Part shown: in pieces, positions 13,661 through 34,521 of the stretch
How the letters are laid out: each line of letters opens with the position of its first letter
Numbering within the stretch: position 1 is the stretch's first letter
Assembly: GCA_944349915.1 (NCBI GenBank)
Contig: CALVNU010000001.1
Coordinates: 1-34,521 of the forward strand
DNA: 34,521 nt
Source of the DNA: an uncultured Clostridia bacterium
GTDB taxonomy: Bacteria > Bacillota > Clostridia > Christensenellales > UBA1242
Direction: 5' to 3'
The notes under the pieces: model-generated
What the model was told of the DNA's origin: nothing
Seen by the model: only the letters and a program-made list of their open reading frames with translations
Databases searched by the model: none
Position numbers and translations under genes: made by a program

Positions 13661-13709
13661 ATAATTGATTAATAAAATAAAGTAAAAACAGAAAAAATTA
13701 ACAATAAAC

Positions 13710-14021: not shown

Positions 14022-14042
14022 CTAAATTTTTGTGAGGTTAAT

Positions 14043-14537: not shown

Positions 14538-14592
14538 TATATTAGCAATTTTATTTTGTTTTGTCAACTAATTGCTAATATATTATCTTTTT
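14535..14592 (+). terminator. intrinsic terminator with a 16-bp perfect stem
   Basis: TAATATATTAGCAATT (14535..14550) pairs with AATTGCTAATATATTA (14570..14585) across a 19-nt loop, followed by TCTTTTT. The left arm contains the stop codon. Confidence 0.7.
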
Positions 14593-14661
14593 AATTTTAG
14601 CGATTTTAAAGTTTTTGTTTTTCTTTGGTGGAAGATGTAATTTTTTATTTTTGCTCATAAT

Positions 14662-15447
14662 TTACTCTTTGTTACCCAAATATTTTATCATTTTAAATTC
14701 TTCACAAATTATATCAATATTATCATTGAACGGGATTCCTTTTAATAATAGTTCTTTTGAAAAGAATTCTTTATGAATTGATTTCCAAGATTTTAAAGTT
14801 CTATCTTTTTCTCCTTCTTTGAACGCGTGTTCTTCTGTAGCTTTATCAAAAGTTGTTTTGTAAATTTTGGTTGTTTGTAAAATTATTTTTTTAGTTTTAT
14901 CCCAATTAGCAAGAATTGAAAATCCTGTATTTAGTTTATCATTTTTATTGTATAAATATGAAGTGGCAGTTTTATCACCTTTTACTACAAGATCAAATAA
15001 TTCATCTGCCATTTTTTTGTTATCACCAAAATGCCAGTCCACAATGTCTTGTTGAAATCGTAGTAAATATCCATCAGGGTCTTGAACCAAAAACTCCAAA
15101 ACATGATTTATAATATCGTTTTCTTGATAATCACTAACTAGCAGATCAATAAAAATTTTAATATTATGTTGTTTTAATGAATTATAAACTTGTGAAATAT
15201 CTGGTAATATTATTTGAAAATTTACACCTCTACCTAAAGGGTATTTCATATCATCTGTTACATTCCAACTTCCATTAGATGAAGGAAGAGTTAATTGTTG
15301 CAACATAATTTGACAATTGCCTAAAACAAGCATTGCGAAATCATTTCTTGCATATGCTATTTCAAAACCTAAAATTTCCGTGTAAAATTTTTTTGATTTT
15401 TCTAAATCAAAAACTCTTAATTCTGGGATTAAACAATTAAAATTCAT
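14662..15447 (-). CDS. two-domain protein: N-terminal glyoxalase/bleomycin-resistance (VOC) fold plus C-terminal ASCH domain
   Basis: The N-terminus LRVFDLEKSKKFYTEILGFEI...DPDGYLLRF is VOC-like. The C-terminal half, ELFDLVVKGDKTATSYLY...KEGEKDRTLKSWKSIHKEFF, is ASCH-like. An AAAGGAA RBS is present. Confidence 0.7.
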   Translation of the reverse strand: MNFNCLIPELRVFDLEKSKKFYTEILGFEIAYARNDFAMLVLGNCQIMLQQLTLPSSNGSWNVTDDMKYPLGRGVNFQIILPDISQVYNSLKQHNIKIFIDLLVSDYQENDIINHVLEFLVQDPDGYLLRFQQDIVDWHFGDNKKMADELFDLVVKGDKTATSYLYNKNDKLNTGFSILANWDKTKKIILQTTKIYKTTFDKATEEHAFKEGEKDRTLKSWKSIHKEFFSKELLLKGIPFNDNIDIICEEFKMIKYLGNKE

Positions 15448-15704
15448 ATAAAATTCCTTTTTCTAATATGGATTATATCATAAATTAAACATAAATCTAA
15501 TAACTGTTACAAATTTTTGCAGGAAAAATGCAAGATTTTTGCAAATGGACTGTTTTGTGCTGTTTTTTTTGCCTGTTTAATTTGTTTATTTTCTAAATAG
15601 TAAAAAAACAGTTTTATTTGCTTTTTGTCTATAAAATGCGTTTTTTAGTTTAATGTCAAATGTAAATAAACCGCAGGGATTGTTATATATTTTTTTAAAT
15701 TTTG

Positions 15705-15732
15705 TTGATAATTTTGCAAAATGTGGTATTAT
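15705..15732 (+). promoter_or_regulatory. promoter of the transglutaminase-like gene, -10 only 7 nt from the ATG
   Basis: TTGATA (15705..15710), 16-nt spacer, TGG-TATTAT (15724..15732). The ATG is at 15740. Confidence 0.45.
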
Positions 15733-15739
15733 ATATTAT

Positions 15740-18421
15740 ATGAAAAATAATTCATTAAAGCATGCAACATTCTCTATTTTTAAATTGATGAGTTTTGTTT
15801 GTCTTCTTTTGTGTTTGTCGTTTTTTGTAGGTATAATTCCAATATCTACAAATCAACAGGCGGAAGGGGCGAGTTCAACATCAATTGAAAATTATGATGA
15901 TTATATTGATTATTTTAAAGCAAATACAGATGACCCTTTAAACAATGCTTTGGTTGCGTTTTACACGGCATTTGAAAATAATATTGAAGAGATAAAAAGT
16001 GGCTCGTTTGAAATTTCCATGAGAGAGGAAGGGCTATACAATGCTGTCAAATCTTTGTCCTATCAAGATATACATTCTGCTTTGGCGGGAGCAGTAAATG
16101 CTTTTATGTATGACAACCCAGAAAACTTTTTTATTGATTTTACTCAAATAGACATGTCGTTTCCACCGTTTAATAGTATATTTTTAAAATATGATGTGAC
16201 TGTTTCGGCAAATATTTGTTATATTGAAGGAATTGTCAATCAAAACAGTTTAGACAATATGATAGAGCAAATGAGAACCGAGCGTGATGAAATAATCGAT
16301 TTATTATATGCAACATATGGAGATAATCCAACAGATTATCAAATTGTCTATTTTGTAAATGATTATCTTGTGGATAATGTGGTGTATGATGTAACAACAA
16401 ACAAAACCTTTGTGCACACAGCGTATGGCGCTCTTGTTAATGACGAAGCAGTTTGTGATGGTTATGCCTATGCGGCGCAATATATTTTAGACGAACTCGG
16501 AGTTGCCAACCTTGTTGTGGCAGGAAAAGCGTACAATCCGTCAACAGGAAGCAGTGAGGGCCACATGTGGAGTTATGTGAAACTTTATGGGCATTGGTAT
16601 GGTCTTGATGTAACATGGAATGATCCAATTTATTATTTTACTCCGTCCGAAGCGGTTTACAACGCAAACAAAGTGAGATATTTTTTGGTTGGTGGAGATG
16701 AGGCAACCCAAACAGGATTTTACAAAATGGAGGGCGATTCGGATGCTCGCGTTGTAAGTAATTATCAAATTTATTTTACTTCAAACGATACCAAACTAAC
16801 CATGGAACTTCCGCATCCAGTTATTGAAAAAGAAGACTATATAGACCCAACATTTGAAGTGAGAACGCAAAAGAAAACGAGTGGAAATTCCACGGAGTCG
16901 ATGGCGATTTCGCTTGTGGCGCAAAACAAACTTGATGATATGTATTTTGCCTATAGCGTAAGTTACGATAATGGTGCAACATTTGGAGAAAAAGTTAAGT
17001 GTGAAAATTCAATGGCTATTTCCGATTCTGCTAAAAATGGCACCTACAAGTTTTATTTGATGTCAAGCGATGGGAAAATTGTAAAAGAAAGTCAAACGGT
17101 TGCGGTTGAAGTGGGGCAAAAATATAACTTAACAATCAACAGCCAAGAAGGCGTTGAATATCAAATTATCCCAGACCAAATTGACGGATATTATGAAGGG
17201 AATTATGTGAAAATTGAGTTGACGGCCCTGCCTATTGGAAAGGAAGGTGTTATAACAAGCAATCAAGTTGAAATTGCACAAATTGAAGAAAATTGGTTTG
17301 CTTTTAATTTTCCAAAGGGTGATTTAACTCTTGAAATTGGAACTCAAGACAAACTTTATAATATATTAGTAGCAGTGCAAGCACAAGGTGTTGAATATGA
17401 AGGTGCTGTTGAATATGAACTTGATAAAACCGAAGCCTATTATCAAAACAAGGTGCAATTGACAATCAATTCACTGCCGATTGGGAAAGAACTTGCTGGA
17501 GTTAAAATTGGGGAGATGGAATATGAAGGCGAGTTGGCACTAGGACAGCCTATTGAGATTACTATGCCACCAAATGATTTGGAAATTACCATTTTGCTTG
17601 AAGATATTGTGTATGATGTTATGCTCACAAACAATTCCGAATATCAAATTGATTACAATAGCAACGCAATCTATCAACAGGAAGTTAGTATTGTTGCAAC
17701 AAACTTACCAGAGAATAAAAAAATTGTTATTTCTGGCGTTGAAAATATACAGTATTTGACCAACTCGCAAGCATCTTTCGTTATGCCAGCGGACAATGTT
17801 GAAATAACACTTGATGTTGAAACCTTGGTGGAACATTCAATTTCCGTTTTGACCGAAAATGGAGTTGAAGTTTCTTTAAACCATTCGCAAGCTTATTTTG
17901 GGCAAGAAATTTTTGTAAATCTTTCTTACAATTACAATAAATATCGTGTAAATTCTGTTTTAATCAACGGGATTGAAGTTGTAAAAGTAGATAATTATAC
18001 CTATAGTTTTATAATGCCAGACGAAGAAGTTGAAATTGTGCTTGATGTTTATCAAATTCCAAACATTGTTATCACAAACGATATAGAATATACATTGACA
18101 TTTAATGAAGACACGAAAGGATATTATTATTTGATTACATTGGCAAATGTGCCGTCAAATTTATATGTTAAAAATATTAGCATAATTAACGAAAATGGCG
18201 AAAGTGTTTCTGCGATAACACAAATAAGTCAAAACACATTCCGCGTTGATGTTGCAGAAGATGATTTGACTATAACATTCAACTTTGGCGAAAAAGATTC
18301 AATGCCAGACAATAGCAAAGATGATTATATGCAAATTCTGGCGTTTGCACTAATATTTATTGCTGTGGTAGCCTTTGTTTCTCTTGTGATTTATCTTATA
18401 AGATTAAAAAGGAAGAAATAA
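15740..18421 (+). CDS. membrane-anchored extracellular transglutaminase-like (papain-fold Cys-His-Asp) protein with tandem beta-rich modules
   Basis: Start set at ATG 15740 (MKNNSLKHATFSIFKLMSFVCLLLCLSFFVGIIP, signal-like). The triad context is AVCDGYAYAAQY (Cys codon 16454..16456), EGHMWSYV and GLDVTWNDP. A C-terminal TM helix ILAFALIFIAVVAFVSLVIYLI is followed by RLKRKK. Confidence 0.78.
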   Translation: MKNNSLKHATFSIFKLMSFVCLLLCLSFFVGIIPISTNQQAEGASSTSIENYDDYIDYFKANTDDPLNNALVAFYTAFENNIEEIKSGSFEISMREEGLYNAVKSLSYQDIHSALAGAVNAFMYDNPENFFIDFTQIDMSFPPFNSIFLKYDVTVSANICYIEGIVNQNSLDNMIEQMRTERDEIIDLLYATYGDNPTDYQIVYFVNDYLVDNVVYDVTTNKTFVHTAYGALVNDEAVCDGYAYAAQYILDELGVANLVVAGKAYNPSTGSSEGHMWSYVKLYGHWYGLDVTWNDPIYYFTPSEAVYNANKVRYFLVGGDEATQTGFYKMEGDSDARVVSNYQIYFTSNDTKLTMELPHPVIEKEDYIDPTFEVRTQKKTSGNSTESMAISLVAQNKLDDMYFAYSVSYDNGATFGEKVKCENSMAISDSAKNGTYKFYLMSSDGKIVKESQTVAVEVGQKYNLTINSQEGVEYQIIPDQIDGYYEGNYVKIELTALPIGKEGVITSNQVEIAQIEENWFAFNFPKGDLTLEIGTQDKLYNILVAVQAQGVEYEGAVEYELDKTEAYYQNKVQLTINSLPIGKELAGVKIGEMEYEGELALGQPIEITMPPNDLEITILLEDIVYDVMLTNNSEYQIDYNSNAIYQQEVSIVATNLPENKKIVISGVENIQYLTNSQASFVMPADNVEITLDVETLVEHSISVLTENGVEVSLNHSQAYFGQEIFVNLSYNYNKYRVNSVLINGIEVVKVDNYTYSFIMPDEEVEIVLDVYQIPNIVITNDIEYTLTFNEDTKGYYYLITLANVPSNLYVKNISIINENGESVSAITQISQNTFRVDVAEDDLTITFNFGEKDSMPDNSKDDYMQILAFALIFIAVVAFVSLVIYLIRLKRKK
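17117..18297 (+). repeat. five tandem ~75-85 aa protein modules within the transglutaminase-like gene (divergent InlB-B-repeat-like)
   Basis: Each module starts Y-N/D-[LIV]-x-[LIV] or similar and ends F-x-M-P-x-x-[DE]-[LV]-E-I-x-[LI]. The module endings are FNFPKGDLTLEIG, ITMPPNDLEITILL, FVMPADNVEITLDV, FIMPDEEVEIVLDV and RVDVAEDDLTITFNF. The repeats are diverged at the DNA level. Confidence 0.6.
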
Positions 18422-21324: not shown

Positions 21325-21353
21325 TTGACAATTTATGACATAAAAAGTATACT
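21325..21353 (+). promoter_or_regulatory. consensus-like promoter of the giant gene
   Basis: TTGACA (21325..21330), 17-nt spacer, TATACT (21348..21353). It sits downstream of a ~250-bp almost pure A/T tract. Confidence 0.62.
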
Positions 21354-21440
21354 TTTTATAAAGGTCGACAGAAGACCTCTTTTGTCGAGCAATTTGTGTT
21401 TAATATTTTTGAAATTACAAATATTAAACAAGGAGGCAGA

Positions 21441-21509
21441 ATGAAAAAATTTATTGTTGCATTCTTAAGTTTATTTACTTTGCTTGGCGCATCTATTCTG
21501 TATGCGTGC
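21441..21509 (+). other. lipoprotein signal peptide with lipobox
   Basis: MKKFIVAFLSLFTLLGASILYA|C: KK n-region, hydrophobic core, and an L-Y-A-C lipobox with the Cys codon at 21507..21509. Confidence 0.8.
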
Positions 21510-24500
21510 GGGCCAACAAATATAGAACTTTCTCTTTCACAGCAAAGTGTGTCTTTGCAACTTAACGGAACAGAGGAAGCCAAGGTTGCCACTATTATTG
21601 CAGATGTGACAGGAACAGACGATAAATCAATATCGCTTGACTTTGTCTATGATGACGATATTATTTCTCCATCTGTGTCTCAAAACAGTCAAGGGCAAAG
21701 CGTTATCACCCTAACTGCAACCAATGAGGGGAGTACCGAACTTGTTGTTACAACAAAACAAGGCAGTGTAAAAAAATCTATCTACATTGAGGTTTATACA
21801 GAAGTAACTTCAATGATTGAAAAGAAAGAAGACATTGCAGAGGGGGAGAAGAGCACAAGATTTTTGATTAAAAATGACACATATCAAACTTTAGATGCAA
21901 ACAGTCTTATTTCATTTACTCCATCTACAAGCACAAGAAAAAATGTGGTTTGGACATTTGAGGCTAGTGGCACAACAGAGTATAACGGTGCAAATATTGT
22001 CGGCAATCAAATTTACATTCCTCAAACCTTTAGCGAAAACGAGGTTGTTTTAAGGGCAACTTCGGCAAACAATCCAGATGTTTATGTTCCAAACAACATT
22101 ACAATACCTGTAATAGAACAAATCACAATTGAAAATATAAGGCTTGGCGCGTCTATTTATGCGACCACAGGTTTTGATTACACAACGACGGCAAACGGAG
22201 AACCTTTGGGTGAAGTTTCTGTTGAAATCACCCCAAATCTCTCACAGTATGAAGATTCTGGAGATCCTTCACCAGACGGCCCACATGAAGATATTGCTTA
22301 CATAAAAGTTGAAACAGAATTGACTAACAGCCTTGAACTTATCCCAACTATCACCGATGTGTATGGAAATCCGTCAAATTTGTTGACTGTGCTTAGTGAG
22401 AACACTACAAATGGATACATTTTTTCTGTAAAAGCATCAAAGTCTTCTGTGAACCAGGACTTTTATGTTTCTTTCAAAATTGGCTATAAAAACTATGATT
22501 ATAGCATTGATATTTCTTCTGCATATCAAGAAATCGGGCAAGAGTATGGCAGAATTTTAGTTGAAGCGGCAGATAAAATAGAAAAAGTTTCTGTTCTTAG
22601 AAATAATATAGACGCCAGCCTTAACACTCAAACGCTTTATTCTCATTATGCAAGCAATGTAAATTCTGGTTATGGTCAATTGTATAATGTAAAACTTACC
22701 CCAGACACTGTTTTATGGGGAGAAAATGGCGAGGCAACTGGAGAATACACAATTTCGTTGCCAGCACAAGAAGGTGATATCAATCCAATCAAGGCATACT
22801 ATCGTTTAAATGGTGTTTACACAGAAATCGGCTTTACGCTTGAAAATGGCGTGTGGATTTCGGAAAAAATTGCAAGCACATCTTCTCTCACATTCGAGCA
22901 TAACCTTTACCTTAAGGCAAATGAAGAATATTTTGCAGAGCAAAGCATCACATTTAAAAGCGGTATTTTACTTACTTTTGCTTCAATTGATAATCCTAGG
23001 GCATCAACCGCAACAGTTGAATTCAACATTGTTAAGACGGCAGATGAGATGTCAATTACAGGCGAGAACGATGAGGCTGTTTCTGAAATTTCAATCAACA
23101 GCACAACTGCCACAGAAATGCAATTTATATTTATCTTGCATGGACAAACAACTGTTGATGGCTTGTCTGTAAATTCAAACAGCCAATATGTTGAAGAATT
23201 TGGCTCGCCAGAATTTATTTCAACAAATGGTGGAGAAAATGTTCGTTTTAGCATTACTATCAAATTAAAGAATGAATATATTGGACTTACCAACAGAAGC
23301 ACATCATTTACCATTAGGCATGAAAACGGAACAGAAAGTTTGCCAATAACTTTGAATATTTATTTCCCACTTACAAACGCAACTGTTTCTGCGAGCAACA
23401 CATCGGCATCAATTGTGATGAATAATCAAAGCAGTTATATAATTTCAAATGACGGTATAAACTTAAACGGCTCTCTCTCTGCAGGCGTGTTAATGCTAAA
23501 AAATGGAACAACAACACCACTTATTCATAGTTATAACACAAGTTCAAACGGCAAAGAGGCAAATGCTACAGTGTCGGTAAACTTCTATGATTTTGATGAA
23601 AACAACGAATATGGAATAAGTTTGCAAGATTTTCTTGCTTTATACAATAGCACTAGTGAAGATATAGAAAGCAATTTGCAAACTATTATTGACAGGGCGG
23701 TGGAGACAAATAGCAATGTTGTAACTTTTGATAGTTATGCAAATAACAATCTTAGAACAACACATGAAGGTTACACATACATTGTGTTTACATATCAAGG
23801 CATTGGTGAAGGAGCAATAACTGCGTCATTCAAGAGAGTTGTGCTTGTTCACTCATATAATGCAGTTGAAAGTTTTAATGTCAATCCTGCAAGTGATAGA
23901 AACTTTACTCTTTATGCCAGCGATTCTGTTGGCGAAACGGGTGATACAATTCAAAAAACAATCACCGTTTCATATTCTTCAAACGCTATAACTTACAAAG
24001 CAAATTCAAACTTTAAATTTATAACAGAATTTGCTGGTGTAAGATATACTGGAACAATTGATGACAATTCAAGAGTGATTTGGTATGATGAAAACAACAA
24101 TGTCAACACAGAACTTGACAAATATTTCCAAATCACAGCAGTACCACAGGATACACATATTTCATTTACAGTCTATGCAATCTCTACAAACGGACAAATA
24201 AACAGTCCTCATACAATCTATCTTCAATATATCCTTACAAGTGGAAATGCAGGGCTTAACAATGCAGGGCTTAATGACTCAACTTCTCCATACGAGGCAG
24301 TTGTTAGTTTTACAATTATAAATGCCGACAGGGTGGAAGAGGTTATTGTTGACGGTGTTGATGAAGACGGTATCTATTTTGAAATCGGCTCTTTGACTTC
24401 AACATCACAGTTTGTTATTGTACAGACTGGGCCAAGCAATGCAAAAAACACTGGTGTAAGTTATGTTGTTGCAAATAAAAATGGAGAACAAACCTCTCCT

Positions 24501-27500
24501 ATTGTAAATGTTACAGCCCTTCCTAGTGTTAACACAAGACTTAAAATCGACCTTTTAAACACAATTCAACAGGGCACAAGTGGAGCACTTTATATTTTCC
24601 CAACAGATGCAGTTAATAACGGAATTATAAACTATCAATTTACCAACAGCCAAGGTGAAATTGAAAGGGGAACACTCAACCTTGCCGACCTTGGAAAAAC
24701 CAGAAGCGACAAAAAGACAAACTTTGAATATTTGATTGAAAATGCTTTCTTTACAAATAACCAGGGCGAGCAGATTAGTTTTGCCAACATCTTTAAAAAG
24801 GTTAAAATCGAAGTTGCCGACGGAAGAAGTTTTGCTCATGCTTTTAGAGTTTATGACGAAACTGGCTTTGACCATGGAGATGGCTCAAGCACATATTTCT
24901 ACTCTGTTATGAACGATATATCTGTGGGCGCTGGCAATGTTTTTGACAACTTTACAGGTGGCGTACAAGGATATAATAACAACAGCGATATCACAATAAC
25001 TTTGACTGGCTCTAATTTTGCAAACACACTTACAAAAAACGGAAGTGAAGGTGGTCAAATTCGAGATATCTCCTTCAATGGAAATGTTACAGGAACGGGC
25101 TTTGTTGTTGGAACAAATAACGGCACAATCACAAATGTTACAGTTGATACCAATGGGCTTTATAGCAGTGTTTTAACAGGAAACGACTCATATGTTGGCG
25201 GAATTGCTGGCATTAACGGCAAAAGCGGAACAATTACAGATGTGTCTGTTTTAGGGCTACAAATCAACGCCGGAAATTACACGGTAGGCGGTGTGGCTGG
25301 TCAAAACAAGGGTATAATCACCATTGCAAGAGTAGAATTCTACAACCTGGCAAACACAGAAAACACAGAAGGAACCAAACTTAACACATTCAAAGGCTCT
25401 GTTGTTGGTGGCGTTATTGGCGAACAACAAGTTTCTGGAACAATCTCTCAAGTTTATGCTTACGACTATATCTTGACAAATAACACAAGCAACGCAAGGC
25501 TTAATGGCGCTAAAGTTGGCGCTATAGTTGGAAACTATACAGCAAGCGGGCAACTTACTTTTGTTGAAAGTTTTGCCGTTGTTGACAATTTAAGCACACT
25601 TGAAAACTTTGTAGGCTCAAAAGCAGACAGTGCAACATTGTCTTTTGCAAACAGTTATATTGGATATTATAATGATAGCAATACATATACATTTGTATAT
25701 TCAATGTCGGATGGAGAAAACAGCGACTTTGCAAACAATAGCGAGCGCATTATCACTTCAAGCGATGCAAACTTTAATAAAAATATAAATGGTGGAAATG
25801 CATATTTAAGATATTTCTATCAAGATGAAAAGGTTTCAACTATAAATTCTACTTTCAACACGGTTTTAGAGAACAACTTGTATAAAGCAATTCAAACAGG
25901 CTCTTCTCTTGTATTCTTTAGAAACAATATCAATGTTGGAACAAATTCTCTTTCAACATCACAATCTCAAGACTATAAAGAGTTAAACACAATTTCAATT
26001 GCAGATTTGCTTGAAGGCTACAATAAAAACATAATTGTTTCTTCAAATTCAAGCAGTGTGATTGTTAGTGGTTCGGAACTGTTTATCCAATCAATTGGTC
26101 AAGGAAAGTTGACAATTTATTCAAAACAAGATGTTTCCGTCAATATTGATACAGATTTTGTTGTTGACAAAGCATTAAGCACAATTTCCTTAATTTCGGA
26201 AAACGCAACAGGAACAGTTGAACATTTTGCTCAAGACAGTGAAACCACAGTAAATATTCAAAAATCAAAATCAAGATTATTTGTCGCAGGATTTACTACG
26301 ACAAGCGTTTATCTTGGACTTGACGCGCAAGAGTTTGAACTTGATATGCTTTCAAACTTTGCGTTCTCGGCAAAGAATGCAGATGCCGAATCTTCTATAA
26401 CAGAAACAAAAGACAAATCATCATTTACACAAATTTCAAGCACAACATTTAGCGTTGTTTCAAATGGGGATAGTGCTACAACATACACAATCTATCCAGT
26501 TTTGAGTGATATGACATCACTTCAAGGGCTAGTTGATGTTACTATCACAATCAATCCTGTTGATGGTGCGATAGCAATCGGCTATGATGGTGATGAAATT
26601 TCAATGTCTCCATCAACAGTTGCCTATGTCAATGTTACAATGGAAACTACCGATGCAAATGATACAGTTGCACCACAAATGTCTTTGGTTGCAAATGGCG
26701 TTGAAACAAAACTAACTAAGAAAGCAGCCGACAATACATTTACATTCTATAAACCACAAGACACAACGCCGATATTTACAGTTACAAGAAGCACTCCTAC
26801 AACAGACAGCAGTAGTGGTATGATTCAAACAAAAGAATTTTCTTTTAGATTTGAAGTTGCGGATGAGTATAAAGACAAACTTAACCAAGATGAGCAGTAT
26901 AGCGTAAATTTTGTTTCTAGTTCTCAATTTACTTCTGGCTCATTAACAATCAACCTGGCAAGACAGGGTATTACAAAAGCAGATGTAACCAATTTCAAAG
27001 TTGACCAAACCTCTTTTAATAGTGGCATAACTTCATACACAACATTAAGCACTTCAACGGGCGTTATGGCTCCAGGAACATCTTCAATTCTCCATGCAAG
27101 TGTAAATCCTGCTTATGCTTATTATGATTATATGGAAGTTACTGTAACTGGTGCTCCAATTGCAAGCGCTGTTGTGTTTATTCCTGTTGAAAAAACAAAC
27201 AGTAATTTACAATATAGAACTACAGAAGATATAACATTTGAAACTTTGTCAAATGGCTTTAGATTTACACCGGCTTCTTCGTATACGCGTGATGAATATG
27301 GCGGAATAAATCCAAAATATGACCTATATTTCCACGCAACCTTCAACCGCGCTATTCCAGAAGATTGCACCCTTACAGTTACTGCAACATATTATGTGTT
27401 CAACAAAGAGACAGGAGAGGCTCAAGTTGTTGACTATGTAAACACTTTTATCTTTGTATCATATCTTGCCGAGCCAACAATTACGGTTGATGGATACAAC

Positions 27501-30500
27501 TCCACCTTGCTTGCTAAAGGCGGAAGCGCAGAACTTAAAATTGCAGTAAACCTTGACCAAGAAATAGAATCTATCAATATTACAAACGCAAGCCAAGGCA
27601 TTGAATACAAATTTATAGAAGAAACAATTGACCAAGTTAATAATAAGAGAATTTATACATATAATTTGCAAGCATCGGTTCTTGCAGCAAGCACAACCGA
27701 TGATAACAGAATTTATATCAAGGCAACTGTTATAAGAAGATTAAACAACAACATTGAAAGAAAAACAACAACCGCAACAGTAACTCTTGTTGACTTTAAG
27801 ATTGATGCAGACGAAACCTATGTTGAAGGTGCAGTCAACGGAGTGCTTAATGTTTATGCAAACATCAATCAAACAGTTTCGCTTCATTATGTTTTTGACC
27901 CAGAAACAATAAACTATGACACATCAAATAGTTTGGCAGAAGACGCATACGATGATATTATGGCCAACAGAGGTACTTTTGAGAGAAATCATAGTTATCC
28001 GGCAACGGCCGGCGGGGCAATTACAGGAGGACAAACTGCAGACTATTTGATTAATGTTGAAGAAAGAGAAGTGGGAGGAAGAACAGAGTATCATGCTATT
28101 CCACTTGAAGATAGAATGTGGTATGTGGTTGGCAACAGCCTTATTCCAATCAAAGGTGCAGATGCAGAAAATTCTTTATTTGATATAAGTGTTGATGAGG
28201 AAAGTGGCGAAATAAACATCAAAGCCAAAACTTTGACACAAGCATCGCAAGAAATGTTGATAAGAACGTATGTTACAACAAACGGTGAAACAAGAACTAT
28301 TGAAACATATTTTACACTTCAAGTTACACCATGGACAAGTCAAGACCTTCCATCTATGATAACTTCTGCACAAGAATTCCTGTCTCTTGCAGAAAGTGAA
28401 GGCGAAGGTATGTATGATTATATCTTGATGAACGATATTGTGCTTGAAGATTACACACCATTCAACACCGACTATATTTCAAGCCTTGACGGAAACGGCT
28501 TTACAATTCACATCAAATCTTTCAACACAACGGCAGAATCAAGCGTGCTTAACCTTGCACTGTTTAATACAGTAAATGAAAACACAACCTTAAAAAATCT
28601 TCGCGTCAACTTGTATAATGGTGGACAAGTTAATGTTGACCTAAATTCTGTAAGCACATTAAATATGGCAGGCCTTGCAATAACCAACAATGGTATCATC
28701 ACAAACAGCGAAGTTGTGTCATTCTATACGGACAGGTATGCCATTGGGCCAAGCGGTTTAAATGAAAATGCCACAAATCAAATTTCGGGAGACCATGGTA
28801 TAAATATCAATTATACAAGAGGCTCAACGGCAATTTCGATGAGCGAAAACTCTTCTTGGACAAGTCGCGTTGCAGGTTTTGTTTTGACCAACAATGGAAA
28901 TATTACAAACTCCAGAGTTGGCGGAGATGAAATTGTTGAATTGTTGGAAGTTGACCCAACATATAACAATCAAATCACTGCCAGAATAACTGCGCTTGAC
29001 AACTTTACAATCAAGGCTCAAGGTCAAGTTGCAGGTTTTGTACTTGAAAACCAAGGCAGTATTGCAGCATCTTTTGTTAAAAACCTTGCAATCAACAACG
29101 AAAGCAAAACTGCAAGAGAAGGCAAGGCGTATGCGGTAGGTTTTGTTGGCACAAACACTGGCAAAATTTTGACAAGTTATGTTGAAGGCGTAAAACAAAC
29201 ATCAACAGAAAACAAACGCGTTTATGCAAGAACAGGTTCTCAAATTACAACAGAGCAGGCTGTTATTGCGGGCTTTGTTTTGACCAATTCTGGAGAAGAT
29301 TCATTGATTGAAAACAGTTATTCAAACATCATGATTTCAAATGGAGATGTCCAGAATGGTGTATATCTTGCGTCGGGCTTTGTTTACCGAAATGAAGGCA
29401 GGGTGGCAAATTGCTATTCAGCAAGTCAAATTGAAAACCAACGCTATTCTCAAATGAACTTCTCAGGTTTGAGCCCTGCTGGCGAACTTCTTGCAGATGG
29501 TGAATATGAAAATTGTTACTATTACAATATGGAATATGATTCAACGGATGCAAACACAGGTTCAAGCACAGAATCAGACTTTGACACCAATGTTTTAATG
29601 ATTCCAGACCCTTCAAGGTCAGAATATTTCTATGGTTTCTCAATTGCAACTTATGGCGGAGAAGACGGCATATGGGCAATGGATACAAATGCTGTTTCTG
29701 GCGAGGGATTGCAACTTCTAGAGCCAAACGATATTGCAATTTCTTACAGGTTTGTAAACTATCTTGAATATAACGCAGATGGTTCTATAAACACAGATGG
29801 CGAATACCAACTTCCATACGGAATAATTTATGTTACAGACGGAACAACAGAATATCAAATCAATCCATATTATGGTTCAGATTCAAACCCAATAATTATA
29901 AGAACAGCGCAAGAGTTTATTGAAATCACTGGTGCTAGCGAGTCTACACCGATACAAGAACAATACAAAGAAACAATTCACGGCACATACAGACTTGTTG
30001 GAGATATTGATATGAGTGCATTTAGTTCTCAAATCATGTCGCTTCCTTCAACTCAAAGTGCATTTAGTGGAAAATTATATGGAAATGGCTTCACAATCAG
30101 TGGGCTAAGTCTTTCATACAACGGCAATAATTTGGCATATGGATTGTTCAAGTCAATCGAGCCATACACAGTGTCAGGAACAAATACAACATATTATCCA
30201 AGAGTTGTGGGACTTCATATCGAAACAAGTTCAAACATGCTTGCGGCAGACACCACATTTGTGGGAACTCTTGCTGGATATATTAAAGATGCAATGATTG
30301 TCAATGTCTCTGTTACATATTCAAACGGTGCAATGGTGCAGGGCAGAAACTTTGTTGGCGGAATTGCAGGACTTATTTCAGGTGATTCTATAGTTAAAAA
30401 CATCACAATCACAAATCCAAACATAACTGCAGTAAGAAATGCTTCAACAGGCACAACAACCTTTGAAGTTAGCGATATCAACACATTCAGAAACTCTGTT

Positions 30501-33500
30501 TTGTCAGGATTAAACTATACATACACATTTACAGGTTCAGATTCAATTGCAACTCAAACTTTGCCATATTCTTATGCCGGCGGTGTGGCTGGTTATGTTG
30601 ATATATATTCATCACCACAATCATACTTTACATACACAACAACACCGGAATACAATGTAACCGTTGTAAGAGTGCTTGGAACGGTCAATATTACAGGTCA
30701 AGTTGCGGGTGGATTGTTTGGGCTTACCGCTCATCAAACTTTTGTTGAAGACGCAGGCATAACAATAAAAGGTCAAATGTCGCAAAACACATCGCATATC
30801 TTAAGCGTAAAAGATTATGCGGGCGGTGTGATTGGTCAATCATTTGGCTACCTTTCAAAACTGTTTGCAACACATGAAGATGATGTTCAACAAGCAATAG
30901 AGGACAACATTGCCTCCTTCTACACAGGCAACACTTCTGTTGAGCGTGGAATTCTCAATTTATTCATGGCGGAAAATCAATCAAGCACAAGTTACACACA
31001 AAAAGCCATTGGCGGACTTGTTGGCTTTGTTGGGTCTGGTATATTGCAAACATCCTATGCAAAAATCAATGTTATTTCAACATCAGCCCAAAGCGCTGGC
31101 GGACTTGTTGGCGAAATCAATTTGACAGGTGCAAGAAGTTATCACTACGAAACACTTGTTGGAGACGGATACAGCAAGTTCTTGTTCCATGAAACCTATG
31201 CAACAGGTGATGTAAGGGCTTACACCTTGCAAAATGGAACTCTTAGCGAAGGCCTTAGCGGTGGTATTGTTGGAAAAATCGGCGACTCATCGGACAGAAT
31301 AACTTTCCTTGCAACAAACGCAATCAATTTCTTCACAAATATTGATTACAGAACAAATCAACCTTATGACACCTTTGCAACAAAATTAGACGACATTGAT
31401 GCAACAGCCATCGGTGCAAATGGCACTGTATATCGTGCAAATTATGTATATCAATTTGTTGGTGGCGCTACAAAAAATGTTGTTATGTCAACTGCAGTCA
31501 CTTTTGCACAGGCAAAAAATATTTCTGGTGCAGAAGGTGCAAAATCTATTGGTTATGTTCAAAGTTATGTATTTGACGGCGACACCACGCCAGTTGTTAT
31601 CAATCTATATAATGGTTACTCATTCAGTTTCTACGGAGACGATATACTGCAACCTGTAGAGTCAATCAGCACTTACACAAACGGTTCGGCGGGATATCAG
31701 GCAACACAAAAAGTGTTCTTAAACAGCATGGTTTGGGATACAAACAATTGGATTCACAATTCCGACCAAATCTTCCCAGAAATCAAATATTCAATTGGAC
31801 AACCTACAACGATTTACCTTGACTGCTACAACATAGCAGAAGTTTTGCAAATGATGACCGAAAACAATAATTTAAATGTTATCGTGCGTGGTTTAACAAG
31901 TGCAGACTCAACAGAATATAGCGATGTTGATATTTCAACATATCAGGCAACTTACCTATTAAGCGGATTTAGCGGAACAATCTCCAGCAGTGAAAATTAT
32001 ATAGATACAGTAAAAGGCAGACAAGTAAGGCTTATCATAAGCAATTCATTGTTTGAGTCAACTGCGGGTGGCTTTACAATGGACAGTGTCCATATTCAAG
32101 TTGGTGAGGGCGCAGCGGATAGTGATGATGCTAATCTTCAAATTGAAGGTGGAATTATAAGCAAAGCAGAAATGGAACTTGCCACTCTCAACAACATCTC
32201 TTTGTATATCAAAAAAGCAATAGATGTTCAAATAACAGCAGAGGGTGATGCCGGATTGATTGCTCCTGTTTTGGATGGAACTTCAATTGAAAGTTTTAGG
32301 TTTTTCATTGACACAGGTTTGGCAACAGACACAACGATTATGGCGGTAAAAGCGTCAGAAAGCGCTTCAACGCCTACTAATCTAAATGTAGGCTTGATTG
32401 CTGGAAGGGCAGAACAAAACACCACAACTTCACCAATGAATATTTACAATGTTCAAATTTTATATGATGAAACTTCTGGTGCTTCTGGTACTCTTCGTCC
32501 TCTTAACGCAATTTCAGTCGATGTACAAGCGTCACAATCAGCAAACATTGGATTGTTCTTTGGTTCAATTTCAAAGGCGAATAGAACAGATGTAATCAGA
32601 ATTGCCGACTGCAACATGAGCCTAATTATGCCAAATTATAAAATCAAAATAAACGGCAAAGGTCTCGCTATGCAGGAATTTGGCTCTCAAGCAAAAATAG
32701 GTGGATTTGTTGGACATGTTGCGGGACTAGACAGCCTTACACTTCTTAGTGCGGGAGATGAACAAACGACAGAACTAGAAATCACAGTGCCGGATAAGTC
32801 AAGTGTTGGTCAAGGCCAATCATTGTATGTTGGCGGAATGTTTGGTACTGTTGGCGGTGCAAATTCCAACGGTGTTGCCGTTTCAACTGCGCAGATAGGA
32901 ACTAGCGACCCGCCTACTATAACACTTGATGTTAAAATCACGCCAGAATCTTCAAGCGGTTCAACATATGGTAGCATTTATTTCGGTGGTGTTGCCGGTC
33001 GAACCACACGAGCACTGCCAGTCAATAATATGACAATCAATTTAACTGCAAAAGTTGTTGGATCACAAAACAGTTATATCGGAGGCGCTGTTGGTATGTA
33101 TAATTCTGCAGACGCAACCGTTATTCAAGGTCTTACAACAACCACAACCATACAAGGCTCAACAACGGAGACTATCGACATCGGTAGTGCATATCTTGGC
33201 GGAATGTTTGGTAGTATTGGTGCACCTGGTATGGGGGATGGAAGTGGAAGTACAGTTATAATACAAGGCACAGATGACCCTACACTACAAACGACATCGA
33301 ACCCTAATACTTCAAAATTAAAAATAGAGGACATAAGTGCAACAAGCCCTCAAATAGGAGGAATTGTTGGCTATACTGCTGAAGGGACCGAAATAGAAAA
33401 TTATCAAATCATGCTTGATATAAGCAATATAACAAGCAACAATGCTAGCAAAACAGGATACAATGGTTCAACAAACATCGGAGGAGTTGTTGGTAGTGCA

Positions 33501-34521
33501 ACCAACAGTGTTAAAATGAATAACATAAAAGTCACAACTGGTACTGACTATAGTGGTATTAATATTTCCGATAAAGCAGAAATTAACTTTGCTGTAGGCT
33601 CTATGTTGGGATATAGCACAAGCAAAATTTTATCAGACGGAAAACTTTATTCGAATATGCCAATTAATTACACGCAGACAGAGTCCAGCACAGACACAGG
33701 ATTGTTATATTTTGGCGGGTTGTTTGGATATCAACATAACAATCTCTCATCCGGGGACAATGCAACCAGTATTGGAGATGGTTCAAGTGCTTATACTGGC
33801 AATATAACAGCATCCTTAATTGATAAGGGCTCTACAATTTACCTTGGTGGTATTTTTGGAAATGTAAAAGTGGGGCAGCTTAATACTAACATTACAACCG
33901 CAATTTTTGGTGGAAAAATCATTGTTAAACATAACCACAACACCATTTCCAACAAAGTCTATATCGGTGGCACCATAGCCAATGTTGACGTGCCGAATGG
34001 GGCTTTAGGAACCGTAACAATTTCAAGAGCCATCAATTATGGTGATGTGTTTATTGATTATGGAGAAAACACTACTGCCAGAATGTCAACCTACACCTTT
34101 GGCGGAATAATTGGGCATATTAACTCTAATGACAAATTTGGAACGCTAAAAGATTCGTACAGCATGGTTACAAATCACAATTCTCGCCTTGCTGGGTCGG
34201 GTGCAAATTCGGTTACTTCTGACATGACCGGCGCTTTGGTTGGCAGTGGAACTTTAAGCGACGACTCTTTGGATAACTACTATAACTCGGCAGTCTGCCT
34301 TGCCTATGACGACCAAGGCACCGATATTGGGTATACGGCGGCCGGAAATGGTTACAACGCAACGGATAGCACTTCAAATATCATAGACAAAGTTTATAAT
34401 CAAACCTTATCCCAATTTCCAGTATTTTCATACTTTGCGTTTCCTGGTGGTACAATCCCAAGTAAACTTAAGCCTACAACATTGTCAACCGACAACAATA
34501 CAATAACAACAGGCTCAGGTT
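21441..34521 (+). CDS. giant surface lipoprotein (more than 4,360 aa, 3' end outside the window) with Ig-like modules and GLUG-like beta-solenoid repeat blocks
   Basis: I translated every codon in the frame of ATG 21441 and found no stop through base 34521. AGGAGG (21431..21436) lies 4 nt before the ATG. The nearest upstream in-frame stop is TGA at 21334..21336. The gene is absent from the supplied track, apparently because it has no in-window stop. Confidence 0.9.
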   Translation, partial: MKKFIVAFLSLFTLLGASILYACGPTNIELSLSQQSVSLQLNGTEEAKVATIIADVTGTDDKSISLDFVYDDDIISPSVSQNSQGQSVITLTATNEGSTELVVTTKQGSVKKSIYIEVYTEVTSMIEKKEDIAEGEKSTRFLIKNDTYQTLDANSLISFTPSTSTRKNVVWTFEASGTTEYNGANIVGNQIYIPQTFSENEVVLRATSANNPDVYVPNNITIPVIEQITIENIRLGASIYATTGFDYTTTANGEPLGEVSVEITPNLSQYEDSGDPSPDGPHEDIAYIKVETELTNSLELIPTITDVYGNPSNLLTVLSENTTNGYIFSVKASKSSVNQDFYVSFKIGYKNYDYSIDISSAYQEIGQEYGRILVEAADKIEKVSVLRNNIDASLNTQTLYSHYASNVNSGYGQLYNVKLTPDTVLWGENGEATGEYTISLPAQEGDINPIKAYYRLNGVYTEIGFTLENGVWISEKIASTSSLTFEHNLYLKANEEYFAEQSITFKSGILLTFASIDNPRASTATVEFNIVKTADEMSITGENDEAVSEISINSTTATEMQFIFILHGQTTVDGLSVNSNSQYVEEFGSPEFISTNGGENVRFSITIKLKNEYIGLTNRSTSFTIRHENGTESLPITLNIYFPLTNATVSASNTSASIVMNNQSSYIISNDGINLNGSLSAGVLMLKNGTTTPLIHSYNTSSNGKEANATVSVNFYDFDENNEYGISLQDFLALYNSTSEDIESNLQTIIDRAVETNSNVVTFDSYANNNLRTTHEGYTYIVFTYQGIGEGAITASFKRVVLVHSYNAVESFNVNPASDRNFTLYASDSVGETGDTIQKTITVSYSSNAITYKANSNFKFITEFAGVRYTGTIDDNSRVIWYDENNNVNTELDKYFQITAVPQDTHISFTVYAISTNGQINSPHTIYLQYILTSGNAGLNNAGLNDSTSPYEAVVSFTIINADRVEEVIVDGVDEDGIYFEIGSLTSTSQFVIVQTGPSNAKNTGVSYVVANKNGEQTSPIVNVTALPSVNTRLKIDLLNTIQQGTSGALYIFPTDAVNNGIINYQFTNSQGEIERGTLNLADLGKTRSDKKTNFEYLIENAFFTNNQGEQISFANIFKKVKIEVADGRSFAHAFRVYDETGFDHGDGSSTYFYSVMNDISVGAGNVFDNFTGGVQGYNNNSDITITLTGSNFANTLTKNGSEGGQIRDISFNGNVTGTGFVVGTNNGTITNVTVDTNGLYSSVLTGNDSYVGGIAGINGKSGTITDVSVLGLQINAGNYTVGGVAGQNKGIITIARVEFYNLANTENTEGTKLNTFKGSVVGGVIGEQQVSGTISQVYAYDYILTNNTSNARLNGAKVGAIVGNYTASGQLTFVESFAVVDNLSTLENFVGSKADSATLSFANSYIGYYNDSNTYTFVYSMSDGENSDFANNSERIITSSDANFNKNINGGNAYLRYFYQDEKVSTINSTFNTVLENNLYKAIQTGSSLVFFRNNINVGTNSLSTSQSQDYKELNTISIADLLEGYNKNIIVSSNSSSVIVSGSELFIQSIGQGKLTIYSKQDVSVNIDTDFVVDKALSTISLISENATGTVEHFAQDSETTVNIQKSKSRLFVAGFTTTSVYLGLDAQEFELDMLSNFAFSAKNADAESSITETKDKSSFTQISSTTFSVVSNGDSATTYTIYPVLSDMTSLQGLVDVTITINPVDGAIAIGYDGDEISMSPSTVAYVNVTMETTDANDTVAPQMSLVANGVETKLTKKAADNTFTFYKPQDTTPIFTVTRSTPTTDSSSGMIQTKEFSFRFEVADEYKDKLNQDEQYSVNFVSSSQFTSGSLTINLARQGITKADVTNFKVDQTSFNSGITSYTTLSTSTGVMAPGTSSILHASVNPAYAYYDYMEVTVTGAPIASAVVFIPVEKTNSNLQYRTTEDITFETLSNGFRFTPASSYTRDEYGGINPKYDLYFHATFNRAIPEDCTLTVTATYYVFNKETGEAQVVDYVNTFIFVSYLAEPTITVDGYNSTLLAKGGSAELKIAVNLDQEIESINITNASQGIEYKFIEETIDQVNNKRIYTYNLQASVLAASTTDDNRIYIKATVIRRLNNNIERKTTTATVTLVDFKIDADETYVEGAVNGVLNVYANINQTVSLHYVFDPETINYDTSNSLAEDAYDDIMANRGTFERNHSYPATAGGAITGGQTADYLINVEEREVGGRTEYHAIPLEDRMWYVVGNSLIPIKGADAENSLFDISVDEESGEINIKAKTLTQASQEMLIRTYVTTNGETRTIETYFTLQVTPWTSQDLPSMITSAQEFLSLAESEGEGMYDYILMNDIVLEDYTPFNTDYISSLDGNGFTIHIKSFNTTAESSVLNLALFNTVNENTTLKNLRVNLYNGGQVNVDLNSVSTLNMAGLAITNNGIITNSEVVSFYTDRYAIGPSGLNENATNQISGDHGININYTRGSTAISMSENSSWTSRVAGFVLTNNGNITNSRVGGDEIVELLEVDPTYNNQITARITALDNFTIKAQGQVAGFVLENQGSIAASFVKNLAINNESKTAREGKAYAVGFVGTNTGKILTSYVEGVKQTSTENKRVYARTGSQITTEQAVIAGFVLTNSGEDSLIENSYSNIMISNGDVQNGVYLASGFVYRNEGRVANCYSASQIENQRYSQMNFSGLSPAGELLADGEYENCYYYNMEYDSTDANTGSSTESDFDTNVLMIPDPSRSEYFYGFSIATYGGEDGIWAMDTNAVSGEGLQLLEPNDIAISYRFVNYLEYNADGSINTDGEYQLPYGIIYVTDGTTEYQINPYYGSDSNPIIIRTAQEFIEITGASESTPIQEQYKETIHGTYRLVGDIDMSAFSSQIMSLPSTQSAFSGKLYGNGFTISGLSLSYNGNNLAYGLFKSIEPYTVSGTNTTYYPRVVGLHIETSSNMLAADTTFVGTLAGYIKDAMIVNVSVTYSNGAMVQGRNFVGGIAGLISGDSIVKNITITNPNITAVRNASTGTTTFEVSDINTFRNSVLSGLNYTYTFTGSDSIATQTLPYSYAGGVAGYVDIYSSPQSYFTYTTTPEYNVTVVRVLGTVNITGQVAGGLFGLTAHQTFVEDAGITIKGQMSQNTSHILSVKDYAGGVIGQSFGYLSKLFATHEDDVQQAIEDNIASFYTGNTSVERGILNLFMAENQSSTSYTQKAIGGLVGFVGSGILQTSYAKINVISTSAQSAGGLVGEINLTGARSYHYETLVGDGYSKFLFHETYATGDVRAYTLQNGTLSEGLSGGIVGKIGDSSDRITFLATNAINFFTNIDYRTNQPYDTFATKLDDIDATAIGANGTVYRANYVYQFVGGATKNVVMSTAVTFAQAKNISGAEGAKSIGYVQSYVFDGDTTPVVINLYNGYSFSFYGDDILQPVESISTYTNGSAGYQATQKVFLNSMVWDTNNWIHNSDQIFPEIKYSIGQPTTIYLDCYNIAEVLQMMTENNNLNVIVRGLTSADSTEYSDVDISTYQATYLLSGFSGTISSSENYIDTVKGRQVRLIISNSLFESTAGGFTMDSVHIQVGEGAADSDDANLQIEGGIISKAEMELATLNNISLYIKKAIDVQITAEGDAGLIAPVLDGTSIESFRFFIDTGLATDTTIMAVKASESASTPTNLNVGLIAGRAEQNTTTSPMNIYNVQILYDETSGASGTLRPLNAISVDVQASQSANIGLFFGSISKANRTDVIRIADCNMSLIMPNYKIKINGKGLAMQEFGSQAKIGGFVGHVAGLDSLTLLSAGDEQTTELEITVPDKSSVGQGQSLYVGGMFGTVGGANSNGVAVSTAQIGTSDPPTITLDVKITPESSSGSTYGSIYFGGVAGRTTRALPVNNMTINLTAKVVGSQNSYIGGAVGMYNSADATVIQGLTTTTTIQGSTTETIDIGSAYLGGMFGSIGAPGMGDGSGSTVIIQGTDDPTLQTTSNPNTSKLKIEDISATSPQIGGIVGYTAEGTEIENYQIMLDISNITSNNASKTGYNGSTNIGGVVGSATNSVKMNNIKVTTGTDYSGINISDKAEINFAVGSMLGYSTSKILSDGKLYSNMPINYTQTESSTDTGLLYFGGLFGYQHNNLSSGDNATSIGDGSSAYTGNITASLIDKGSTIYLGGIFGNVKVGQLNTNITTAIFGGKIIVKHNHNTISNKVYIGGTIANVDVPNGALGTVTISRAINYGDVFIDYGENTTARMSTYTFGGIIGHINSNDKFGTLKDSYSMVTNHNSRLAGSGANSVTSDMTGALVGSGTLSDDSLDNYYNSAVCLAYDDQGTDIGYTAAGNGYNATDSTSNIIDKVYNQTLSQFPVFSYFAFPGGTIPSKLKPTTLSTDNNTITTGSG

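Follow-up and report, generated by a model that had tools for sequence, protein, structure and literature searches.

A giant predicted surface-lipoprotein gene with Ig-like and β-helix modules, kept intact across a clade of uncultured Clostridia

We analyzed a 34,521-nucleotide stretch of DNA from an uncultured Clostridia bacterium (contig CALVNU010000001.1 of assembly GCA_944349915.1, forward strand; the whole stretch is referred to as the window), in which positions 21441–34521 cover the first two-thirds, from the 5′ end, of a real gene that is maintained by selection and encodes a giant predicted cell-surface lipoprotein. With moderate confidence we read its product as a surface fibre or adhesin that is lipid-anchored at the N-terminus and combines a conserved core with a distal part that is mosaic and evolves fast. 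Translation of the span from the ATG at 21441 yielded 4,360 sense codons and zero stops up to the last base, as claimed in an earlier sequence-only reading of this DNA, and the other five frames contain 197–336 stops each over the same positions. At the local base composition, the chance of 4,360 stop-free codons is approximately 3e-137. The closest in-frame stop 5′ of the ATG is a TGA at 21336, and ATG 21441 is thus the first start with a ribosome-binding site. The open reading frame (ORF) makes up 38% of the window and runs past its right edge. Its absence from the mechanical ORF list, which the sequence-only reading had pointed out, results from the fact that the list leaves out ORFs running off an end; the listed ORFs of at least 100 amino acids (aa) within the span are either antisense or out of frame (22810–23172), again as described there. 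The five most frequent residues of the window protein are T, S, G, N, and I, the same five that had been named beforehand. The protein is strongly acidic (453 D+E versus 232 K+R) and contains 7 Cys among its 4,360 residues; the G+C content of 0.35–0.41 across the gene is consistent with that of the adjacent genes.

Tandem Repeats Finder and a direct/inverted repeat search detected no long repeats of any type in the DNA, whether direct, inverted, or tandem. Repeats at the DNA level were limited to short codon-level motifs of 20 to 49 nucleotides (nt) with 60 to 90% identity, mostly codons of GGxxG coils and of the AGFV repeats of module 2 described below, and a BLASTP comparison of 150-aa tiles with the whole protein gave one marginal match only. 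Because the sequence is non-repetitive, misassembly by repeat collapse, a concern raised in the sequence-only reading, is unlikely; the collinearity of the orthologues speaks likewise. The giant ORF is almost certainly a real, intact gene.

In the following, P0008 to P0011 denote proteins, and L001 to L018 denote loci or contigs. A query with residues 1 to 1,000 retrieved only two proteins from a set of 5.8 billion, and one with the central 1,160 residues retrieved five, all of them unannotated fragments, including one titled 'MAG: hypothetical protein, partial [Clostridia bacterium]'. For the C-terminal part of the window protein, exact-peptide scans of genome and metagenome contigs (last 500 aa) and a word-indexed protein search (last 1,000 aa) gave no relatives because this stretch is hypervariable. 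An exhaustive HMMER search with aa 3401–4360 identified the collinear full-length proteins P0008 (6,601 aa), P0009 (6,223 aa), and P0011 (6,029 aa), together with P0010 (4,146 aa, contig end). Residues 1–4359 of the window protein aligned with residues 1–4387 of P0008 in a single high-scoring segment pair (HSP) at 61.7% identity; identities to the others were 45–49% over approximately 4,000 aa. A sequence identical to P0008 was present on 17 independent contigs, several of which measure between 0.2 and 1 Mb. Nine syntenic orthologues were recovered in addition to P0008. Among them, a profile built on the conserved module 3 retrieved six GTDB species-representative metagenome-assembled genomes, titled uncultured Clostridia or Firmicutes bacterium, and in all six the gene is a single uninterrupted ORF (6,445, 6,152, 6,066, and 6,145 codons; two run off contig ends at >4,662 and >5,695). 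The nearest of them, L011, shares 64.7% identity over 4,318 aa. The frame is kept open in ten independent genomes, and the family appears so far in a narrow clade of uncultured Clostridia only. As had been recognized beforehand, the gene is cut by the window edge; with orthologues of 6,029–6,601 aa, the window probably lacks approximately 1,700–2,250 C-terminal residues.

The view that the ORF arose by misassembly or belongs to a pseudogene in decay, open by chance, could draw on relatives that look broken, namely L001 (a TAA), L004 (two frameshifts), and the split genes in L003, L005, and L009. The two-gene calls in L003 and L005 were caused by N-runs in the scaffolds. In L004, a Logan single-run contig, the frame changes at the equivalents of approximately aa 1030 and 2438 (L004 positions ~4020–4050 and ~8178–8186) are followed by continued homology, the last ORF reaches the contig end, and the gene comprises ~6,200 codons in total. 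The TAA in L001 (11342–11344) occupies the position of Ser987, where P0008 has Ser; homology goes on in frame past this codon, which lies 45 nt from the end of a contig with 3.7x coverage. P0008 and P0001, which are nearly identical at the N-terminus, probably stem from the same or very close species. The breaks in L004 and L001 may reflect sequencing error as well as a real or phase-variable disruption, and none of the apparent breaks in relatives argues against an intact gene. The remark of the sequence-only reading that such genes are often fragmented fits the relatives in databases, which are split by N-gaps, frameshifts, and one stop near a contig end. Ten genomes with an open frame, ratios of nonsynonymous to synonymous substitution rates (dN/dS) well below 1, and the tiny chance probability refute the artefact explanation, which is hardly credible on the comparative data.

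Selection on the gene was evaluated by the Nei–Gojobori method. The dN/dS of the window gene versus L006 or L011 was 0.18–0.19, with dS near saturation in these comparisons, and less diverged pairs gave 0.29–0.54. Constraint was strongest at aa 2400–3200 (dN/dS 0.09–0.11) and weakest after aa 3600 (0.28–0.47), with 0.28–0.32 recorded for the part from module 4 onward. In agreement, identity to P0008 was 74–84% at aa 2200–3200; at aa 3600–4200 it was 33–37% with many indels, and 12–34% to the other three orthologues. Gaps reach up to 48% versus the orthologues in this hypervariable part (aa ~3600–4200, nt 32241–34040). For the pair L008/L015, blocks of 400 aa ranged in synonymous divergence from 0.04 to 0.81; the gene is thus a mosaic, and the pattern points to an exchange of the C-terminal third by intragenic recombination or as a cassette. 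Mosaic divergence, with an essentially replaced C-terminal third, was observed for the giant genes of the pairs L008/L015 and L006/L011, and the C-terminal tails vary among the orthologues.

Replacement of the C-terminal third between otherwise close genomes and the differing tails are also features of a polymorphic toxin or contact-dependent effector, in which a filament would deliver a variable C-terminal toxin and an immunity gene would lie downstream. Here, the variable part extends over thousands of residues instead of a tip of ~150 aa, and the last 2,300 aa of P0008 contain no toxin, Rhs, LXG, or pretoxin domain. Moreover, the downstream 189-aa gene is 58–97% conserved while the C-terminus of the giant protein diverges, and a RadC-like gene takes its place in two species. 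This independent conservation means that immunity-like co-variation is not seen, and we regard a toxin function as very unlikely.

The gene carries its own expression and export signals (Table 1). The promoter, ribosome-binding site, and lipoprotein signal recognized by the sequence-only reading are all conserved in 14 orthologous loci. Mean column identity across these loci is 81% in the leader versus ~72% in coding DNA. Hairpin a shows apparent compensatory changes (TCGACA/TGTCGA versus GCGACA/TGTCGC and GGTCGA/TCGACC); RNAalifold recovered hairpin b only (−3.9 kcal/mol, one compensatory pair). The leader gave no match to Rfam; it may stabilize or regulate the ~20-kb mRNA.

Bacterial lipoproteins as defined by PROSITE PS51257 have a positively charged n-region, a hydrophobic h-region, and the lipobox [LVI][ASTVIY][GAS]C, with the Cys among the first ~35 residues. 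The N-terminus of the window protein, MKKFIVAFLSLFTLLGASILYAC followed by G, has this layout (MKK-FIVAFLSLFTLLGASI-LYAC23-G) and agrees with the PS51257-type signal peptide and lipobox. Every orthologue carries the motif L[YS]AC[GTS], with C23 as an invariant alignment column. We infer a protein that is lipid-anchored at its N-terminus. A second transmembrane (TM) or hydrophobic segment was found neither in the window protein nor in nine long orthologues, and a C-terminal LPxTG sorting signal is absent from all complete orthologues, two of which match as LPxTA, but only internally at aa 3741.

Table 1. Features of the giant gene and its upstream region (window positions).
Feature	Positions	Strand	Basis
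SigA/sigma-70-type promoter, TTGACA-17-TATACT	21325-21353	+	11/12 consensus positions; both hexamers kept in 14 orthologous loci
5′ leader, ~80 nt	21354-21440	+	conserved across 14 orthologous loci; two hairpins and Shine-Dalgarno site
Hairpin a, TCGACA/TGTCGA	21365-21370 / 21383-21388	+	leader sequence
Hairpin b, GTTTAATATT/AATATTAAAC	21398-21407 / 21420-21429	+	AU-rich 10-bp stem directly 5′ of Shine-Dalgarno site
Shine-Dalgarno site, AGGAGG	21431-21436	+	ends 4 nt upstream of ATG
Type II (lipoprotein) signal peptide, aa 1-22; lipobox L-Y-A-C, predicted lipidated Cys23	21441-21509	+	translation, hydrophobic N-terminus
N-terminal stalk, predicted tandem Ig-like β-sandwich array, aa 24-~1129	21510-24827	+	AlphaFold2 and Foldseek, weak Big_1
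β-Helix module 1 (putative), ~aa 1130-1520; GGxxG/GLUG-like motifs aa 1220-1323	24828-26000	+	motif cluster only
Middle β-rich region, ~aa 1521-2299	26001-28337	+	40-76% identity to orthologues, no family matches
β-Helix module 2 (predicted), ~aa 2300-2829	28338-29927	+	AlphaFold2, Foldseek, motifs
β-Helix module 3 (predicted), ~aa 2830-3440	29928-31760	+	motifs, BLASTP to GLUG protein; 59-74% identity to orthologues
Module 4 onward (putative), aa 3441-4360+; GGxxG repeats aa 3754-4221	31761-34521	+	motif cluster only; ORF leaves window

Sequence-based family assignments of the window protein were largely negative. Pfam and NCBIfam gave 0 matches with the whole window protein, PHROGs gave 0 matches with its tiles, and PDB sequence searches gave 0 matches with the window protein, the P0008 C-terminus, and two orthologue profiles. 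When 600-aa tiles were compared with Pfam, the GLUG motif was the only recurrent signal, accompanied by a weak Big_1 match (aa 42–111, E 0.02). The architecture was therefore read mainly from structure prediction. An AlphaFold2 model of aa 1–1150, built on a multiple sequence alignment of 7 sequences, was all-β with a mean predicted local distance difference test score (pLDDT) of 57 and individual domains at 60–88. With Foldseek, it matched tandem immunoglobulin (Ig)-like arrays, among them Nup210, the S-layer proteins SbsC and Sap, desmoglein, and titin at E values of 1e-10 to 1e-6, as well as filamin and the S-layer protein EA1. At the level of fold prediction, the first ~1,100 residues are thus a string of Ig-like β-sandwich domains.

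The resemblance of the tandem β-sandwiches to SbsC, Sap, and EA1, together with a single-copy, chromosomal, syntenic gene with a strong promoter and ribosome-binding site, would also suit a structural envelope part such as an S-layer-like coat or a wall-spanning scaffold. These Foldseek matches reflect generic Ig-like strings, however, and neither SLH, CWB2, nor any other S-layer anchoring domain was detected in the Pfam and tile searches. In addition, the hypervariable mosaic distal third suits an interaction surface better than a lattice. A purely structural role is for these reasons judged quite unlikely.

Beyond the stalk, motif counting located coils of the type GG[ILVF]xG and GF[VI] in four clusters (aa 1220–1323, 2479–2646, 2973–3274, and 3754–4221). 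A cap, DYILxNDIxL..P...F.GxxDGNGxTI, is clearly conserved at the start of modules 2 and 3; the start of module 1 is weaker but cap-like. Module 2, the most conserved part of the protein, opens with the cap DYILMNDIVLEDYTPF..SLDGNGFTI, followed by six repeats of the AGFV.xN.G.I.NS type, and module 3 opens with YRLVGDIDMSAF..FSGKLYGNGFTISGL, followed by GG[ILV][AVF]G repeats at aa 2973–3274. In module 1, sub-threshold Glug matches were found at aa 1250–1275 and 1278–1293, and the module is 55–63% conserved in the orthologues. The AlphaFold2 model of aa 2241–3400 (alignment of 6 sequences) had a mean pLDDT of 59.8; within it, aa 2305–2690 reached 80–97 and formed a short-strand solenoid. Its best Foldseek match in the PDB was the Streptococcus pneumoniae IgA1 protease (6xja; E 3.9e-5, probability 1.00), followed by 3n6z, the β-helix of a Bacteroides ovatus 'putative IgA1 protease' (E 2.5e-3, probability 1.0, target-normalized template modelling (TM) score 0.47); the G. 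haemolysans IgA1 protease was among further matches. The models predict that aa 2241–3400 hold a right-handed β-helix of the GLUG/IgA1-protease-N-domain type, with high confidence for aa 2305–2690, and for module 3 this assignment is also based on homology to a GLUG-repeat protein. We infer at least four β-helix modules in the window, of which the first and fourth were assigned solely by their clusters of motifs; the middle region at aa 1521–2299 may be a spacer or Ig-like. The sequence-only reading had proposed Ig-like modules followed by G-G-x-x-G solenoid repeats. Both folds were recovered by AlphaFold2 and Foldseek, but the simple order was not, as the β-helix modules alternate with β-rich regions.

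The relation to GLUG-repeat proteins lies at the edge of detection. The highest Glug (PF07581) score in the window was 20.4 bits (aa 2972–2996, E 6e-4), which does not reach the Pfam gathering threshold of 20.5 bits, and other tiles scored 7–14 bits. The Pfam check for Big_2 and GLUG suggested by the sequence-only reading thus brought a Glug signal just short of the threshold and, on the Ig-like side, only the weak Big_1 match. In the orthologue L004, a module beyond the window end scored 23.7 bits, above the threshold. By BLASTP, module 3 matched a 1,081-aa Anaerohalosphaeraceae protein in L017 that has a Glug score of 175 bits; the best E value was 3e-8, and additional HSPs reached 4e-4 and 1e-3. 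GLUG-repeat proteins such as the one in L017 share with the giant protein the cap xRLxxDIDMSAF..FxGxxxGNGxTISxL followed by GG[ILV]xG coils; in contrast to them, the repeats in the window are diverged with Glug at or below the cut-off, module 2 uses the AGFV..N.G.I coil variant, and the modules are embedded in a giant Ig-rich predicted lipoprotein. Aligning module 1 to module 3 with hhalign gave a weak match (probability 11%, E 0.003); the match of A5 versus A4 is trivial because A4 includes full-length proteins spanning module 3. Given the few internal BLASTP matches and the weak alignment of modules 1 and 3, the modules are ancient and diverged, their shared origin being without proof from sequence. 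In the literature, 'GLUG' was encountered with unrelated meanings only. As a separate observation, L018 (Candidatus Merdisoma sp., NZ_JBQHTG010000003.1, 4184–15973) contains an unrelated-looking 3,929-aa ORF without Pfam matches. Only the β-helix cap motif links it to module 3 (41% identity over 63 aa), and it adds a further unannotated giant protein, this one from a gut Lachnospiraceae genome.

The N-domains of M26 IgA1 proteases (ZmpA, 6xja and 6xjb; G. haemolysans, 7uvk; BACOVA_03286, 3n6z) share with the giant protein the right-handed β-helix of GGxxG/GLUG coils and its cap. With an IgA1 protease as top structural match, and with weak Peptidase_M26_N matches in P0008 (24.2, below the cut-off of 27.7) and L017, the protein might itself be a zinc metalloprotease of the ZmpA/B/C type. 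The structural match is confined to the N-terminal β-helix region, however, and neither a catalytic-domain match nor a C-terminal LPxTG was found. HExxH is absent from the 4,360-aa window protein and from nine long orthologues of up to 6,601 aa, and on this test an M26 protease was rejected for the available sequences, its probability being minimal. Compared with these proteases, the giant protein thus lacks the catalytic domain, the HExxH motif, and the C-terminal LPxTG; it has at least four modules per chain, is 4–5 times larger, and is predicted to be lipid-anchored at its N-terminus, and its sequence similarity to the PDB entries is undetectable. The β-helix of the surface fibre would correspond to the non-catalytic part of such enzymes.

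Weaker Foldseek matches of the same model comprised the fucoidan lyase FdlA, the binding region of the L. reuteri SRRP, PfbA, and pectin-lyase-fold enzymes. They raise the question of a surface-anchored multi-enzyme, in which one or more β-helix modules would be catalytic (pectate-lyase-like lyases, hydrolases, or esterases) and degrade host or dietary glycans. The FdlA N-domain (E 0.006–0.1), pectin methylesterases, the RbmB lyase, a PL6 lyase, and phage tailspike depolymerases were among these matches, and the very strong conservation of modules 2 and 3 (dN/dS ~0.1) is what an active site would impose. On the other hand, no CAZy-type Pfam or NCBIfam family appeared in the tiles even at E≤10, PDB profile searches were empty, and catalytic residues were not identified. 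A comparison with PL, GH28, and CE8 families gave no hidden Markov model matches and weak fold matches only (E 0.006–3), and the top fold matches (probability 1.0) are the non-catalytic β-helix domain of the IgA1 protease and 3n6z. The sequence-only reading had likewise recognized no catalytic motif, and HExxH, a toxin domain, and CAZy-type families were indeed not found. We consider a multi-enzyme unlikely.

A binding fibre has counterparts among known surface proteins of Firmicutes. Giant1–5 of Apilactobacillus kunkeei are extracellular proteins of 3,000–8,000 aa with β-solenoid domains and recombinational diversification (PMC12863079). These and SRRP/PfbA-type adhesins resemble the protein described here in their elongated form and in β-solenoid domains thought to bind glycans or epithelia; for L. 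reuteri SRRP (5nxk, 5ny0) and S. pneumoniae PfbA (4mr0), the likeness amounts to Foldseek E values of 0.04–0.18, and no sequence homology to Giant1–5, SRRP, or PfbA was detected. Unlike in these proteins, several solenoids occur, at internal or distal sites rather than one at the N-terminus, a lipobox takes the place of the C-terminal wall anchor, serine-rich repeats are absent, and the family is confined to an uncultured Clostridia clade. Proteins of this size are less rare in bacteria than the sequence-only reading had stated, as UniProtKB holds >41,000 proteins of ≥5,000 aa, and among the bacterial ones those for surface attachment form the second main class (PMC11573180). With other giant bacterial genes (10.1101/2023.11.21.568195; PMC11573180), the present one has in common a product of ≥5,000 aa that is predicted to be extracellular, is β-rich, is fragmented in drafts, and is without functional annotation. 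It is far smaller than the Omnitrophota giants of 30,000–85,000 aa (10.1101/2023.11.21.568195) and differs from giant genes in general by its non-repetitive sequence and because, instead of being strain-specific, it belongs to the core genes of its clade, with stable synteny.

The mechanism that we propose starts from the conservation of promoter, leader, Shine-Dalgarno site, and lipobox, which suggests SigA-dependent transcription, Sec export, diacylglyceryl modification of Cys23 by Lgt, and cleavage by signal peptidase II (LspA). The outer leaflet of the membrane would then hold the anchored N-terminus. The Ig-like array would form a stalk crossing the wall, and the β-helix modules would face outward as a non-catalytic fibre binding glycans, glycoproteins, or other cells. 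An N-terminal anchor would make the C-terminal part the distal one; being the fastest-evolving and mosaic, this part would be an exposed, specificity-determining or antigenically variable adhesive tip, while the conserved core at aa 2200–3200 would carry the common function. A lipid-anchored adhesin or surface fibre had already been suggested by the sequence-only reading and, with the conserved lipobox and the predicted Ig-like and β-helix folds, is also our best reading.

Several points weigh against this assignment. The AlphaFold2 models have mean pLDDT values of 57–60 from alignments of 6–7 sequences, and only aa ~2305–2690 and some Ig-like domains were confidently modelled. Foldseek TM-scores are low, owing to the multi-domain queries, and Pfam Glug stays below its cut-off inside the window. 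The regions at aa 1521–2299 and 3441–4360, together ~40% of the window protein, are without structural assignment, and the 3′ end of this gene copy lies beyond the window edge. The binding function is suggested by fold class and architecture alone, and the same β-helix superfamily also scaffolds polysaccharide lyases and hydrolases, some of which are among the weaker Foldseek matches.

The giant gene stands in a conserved gene order of Transglut_core, iPGM, ATP_bind_3 (PP-loop ATPase), and giant gene, with iPGM and the PP-loop ATPase on the minus strand before it. The Transglut_core protein of ~880–920 aa is followed by MscS in relatives, which is absent from the window; 3′ of the giant gene, relatives have the 189-aa gene and then PPDK. 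A prophage or phage tail fibre was rejected as an origin, given the synteny with housekeeping genes and the lack of any PHROGs family match. The contigs of the relatives carry Spo0A, SipL, SpoIIR, SleB, YpeB, SpoVG, and SpoIIID, which identifies the hosts as endospore-forming Clostridia. The 189-aa downstream gene is function-unassigned (L006 29880–30449, with equivalents in L008 and L010; 58–97% identity); L011 (from 20867) and L016 (from 20276) encode a 277-aa RadC/JAB-like protein instead. In the window, the Transglut_core protein (15653–18421) has 922 aa with an N-terminal TM/signal segment, a transglutaminase core (E 3e-7), a long series of repeated β-rich segments, and a C-terminal TM segment; all relatives have a counterpart (877–884 aa) in synteny with the giant gene. 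One may speculate that it is a surface cysteine protease or cross-linker tied to the giant protein.

Further upstream, the segment 14537–15568, which contains a Glyoxalase/ASCH gene (14662–15447, minus strand), is 95.8% identical at the DNA level to L006 251–1281, compared with ~72% for the remaining shared synteny; the sequence comparison suggests a recent horizontal exchange between species. A VirD4/TraG-type type IV coupling protein (11587–13641, minus strand; T4SS-DNA_transf, E 3e-42) adjoins tRNA-Arg(tcg) (13947–14021) and orphan ORFs including 10080–10646 and 10890–11324, and positions 10062–14021 are possibly the remnant of an integrative conjugative element at a tRNA. Two adjacent ORFs at 5575–8166 encode proteins of 339 and 516 aa with several hydrophobic segments and a long charged/coiled C-terminal half; neither gave a Pfam match.

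At the level of sequence, the giant protein represents an unannotated family without Pfam or NCBIfam coverage. Giant surface proteins of Ig-like and β-solenoid domains are a well-known kind; less usual are the lipobox as exclusive predicted anchor on a chain of 6,000+ residues in a wall-bearing spore-former, the multiple, deeply diverged GLUG-type modules per chain, and the stable core-gene status in the clade. A more far-reaching view, which we find rather unlikely, is that of a previously undescribed clade-specific family of lipid-anchored proteins of 6,000–6,600 aa with several β-helix modules, whose invariant central modules (aa 2200–3200) have a new activity (e.g., glycan processing), whose distal third is a recombination-driven cassette region, and whose conserved structured leader controls or stabilizes the ~20-kb mRNA. 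If it holds, the distal cassette would set strain-specific host, partner, or phage-receptor specificity and would be a major niche determinant of uncultured gut Clostridia.

Owing to scaffold gaps, frameshifts, and contig ends, public protein sets contain the same gene as unannotated fragments of 900–3,800 aa; with P0008, P0009, P0011, and L011–L016 as full-length orthologues, it can now be annotated as one gene. In relatives, the gene is ~20 kb long, and it is kept intact under purifying selection in at least ten genomes. From its size, maintained intactness, and purifying selection, the giant protein is likely one of the main surface determinants of its hosts and a target for studies of colonization, aggregation, and phage or immune recognition. 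The combination of a predicted N-terminal lipid anchor, Ig-like stalk, conserved β-helix core, and mosaic distal part provides a testable model of how a wall-bearing Firmicute may display a fibre without a sortase signal.

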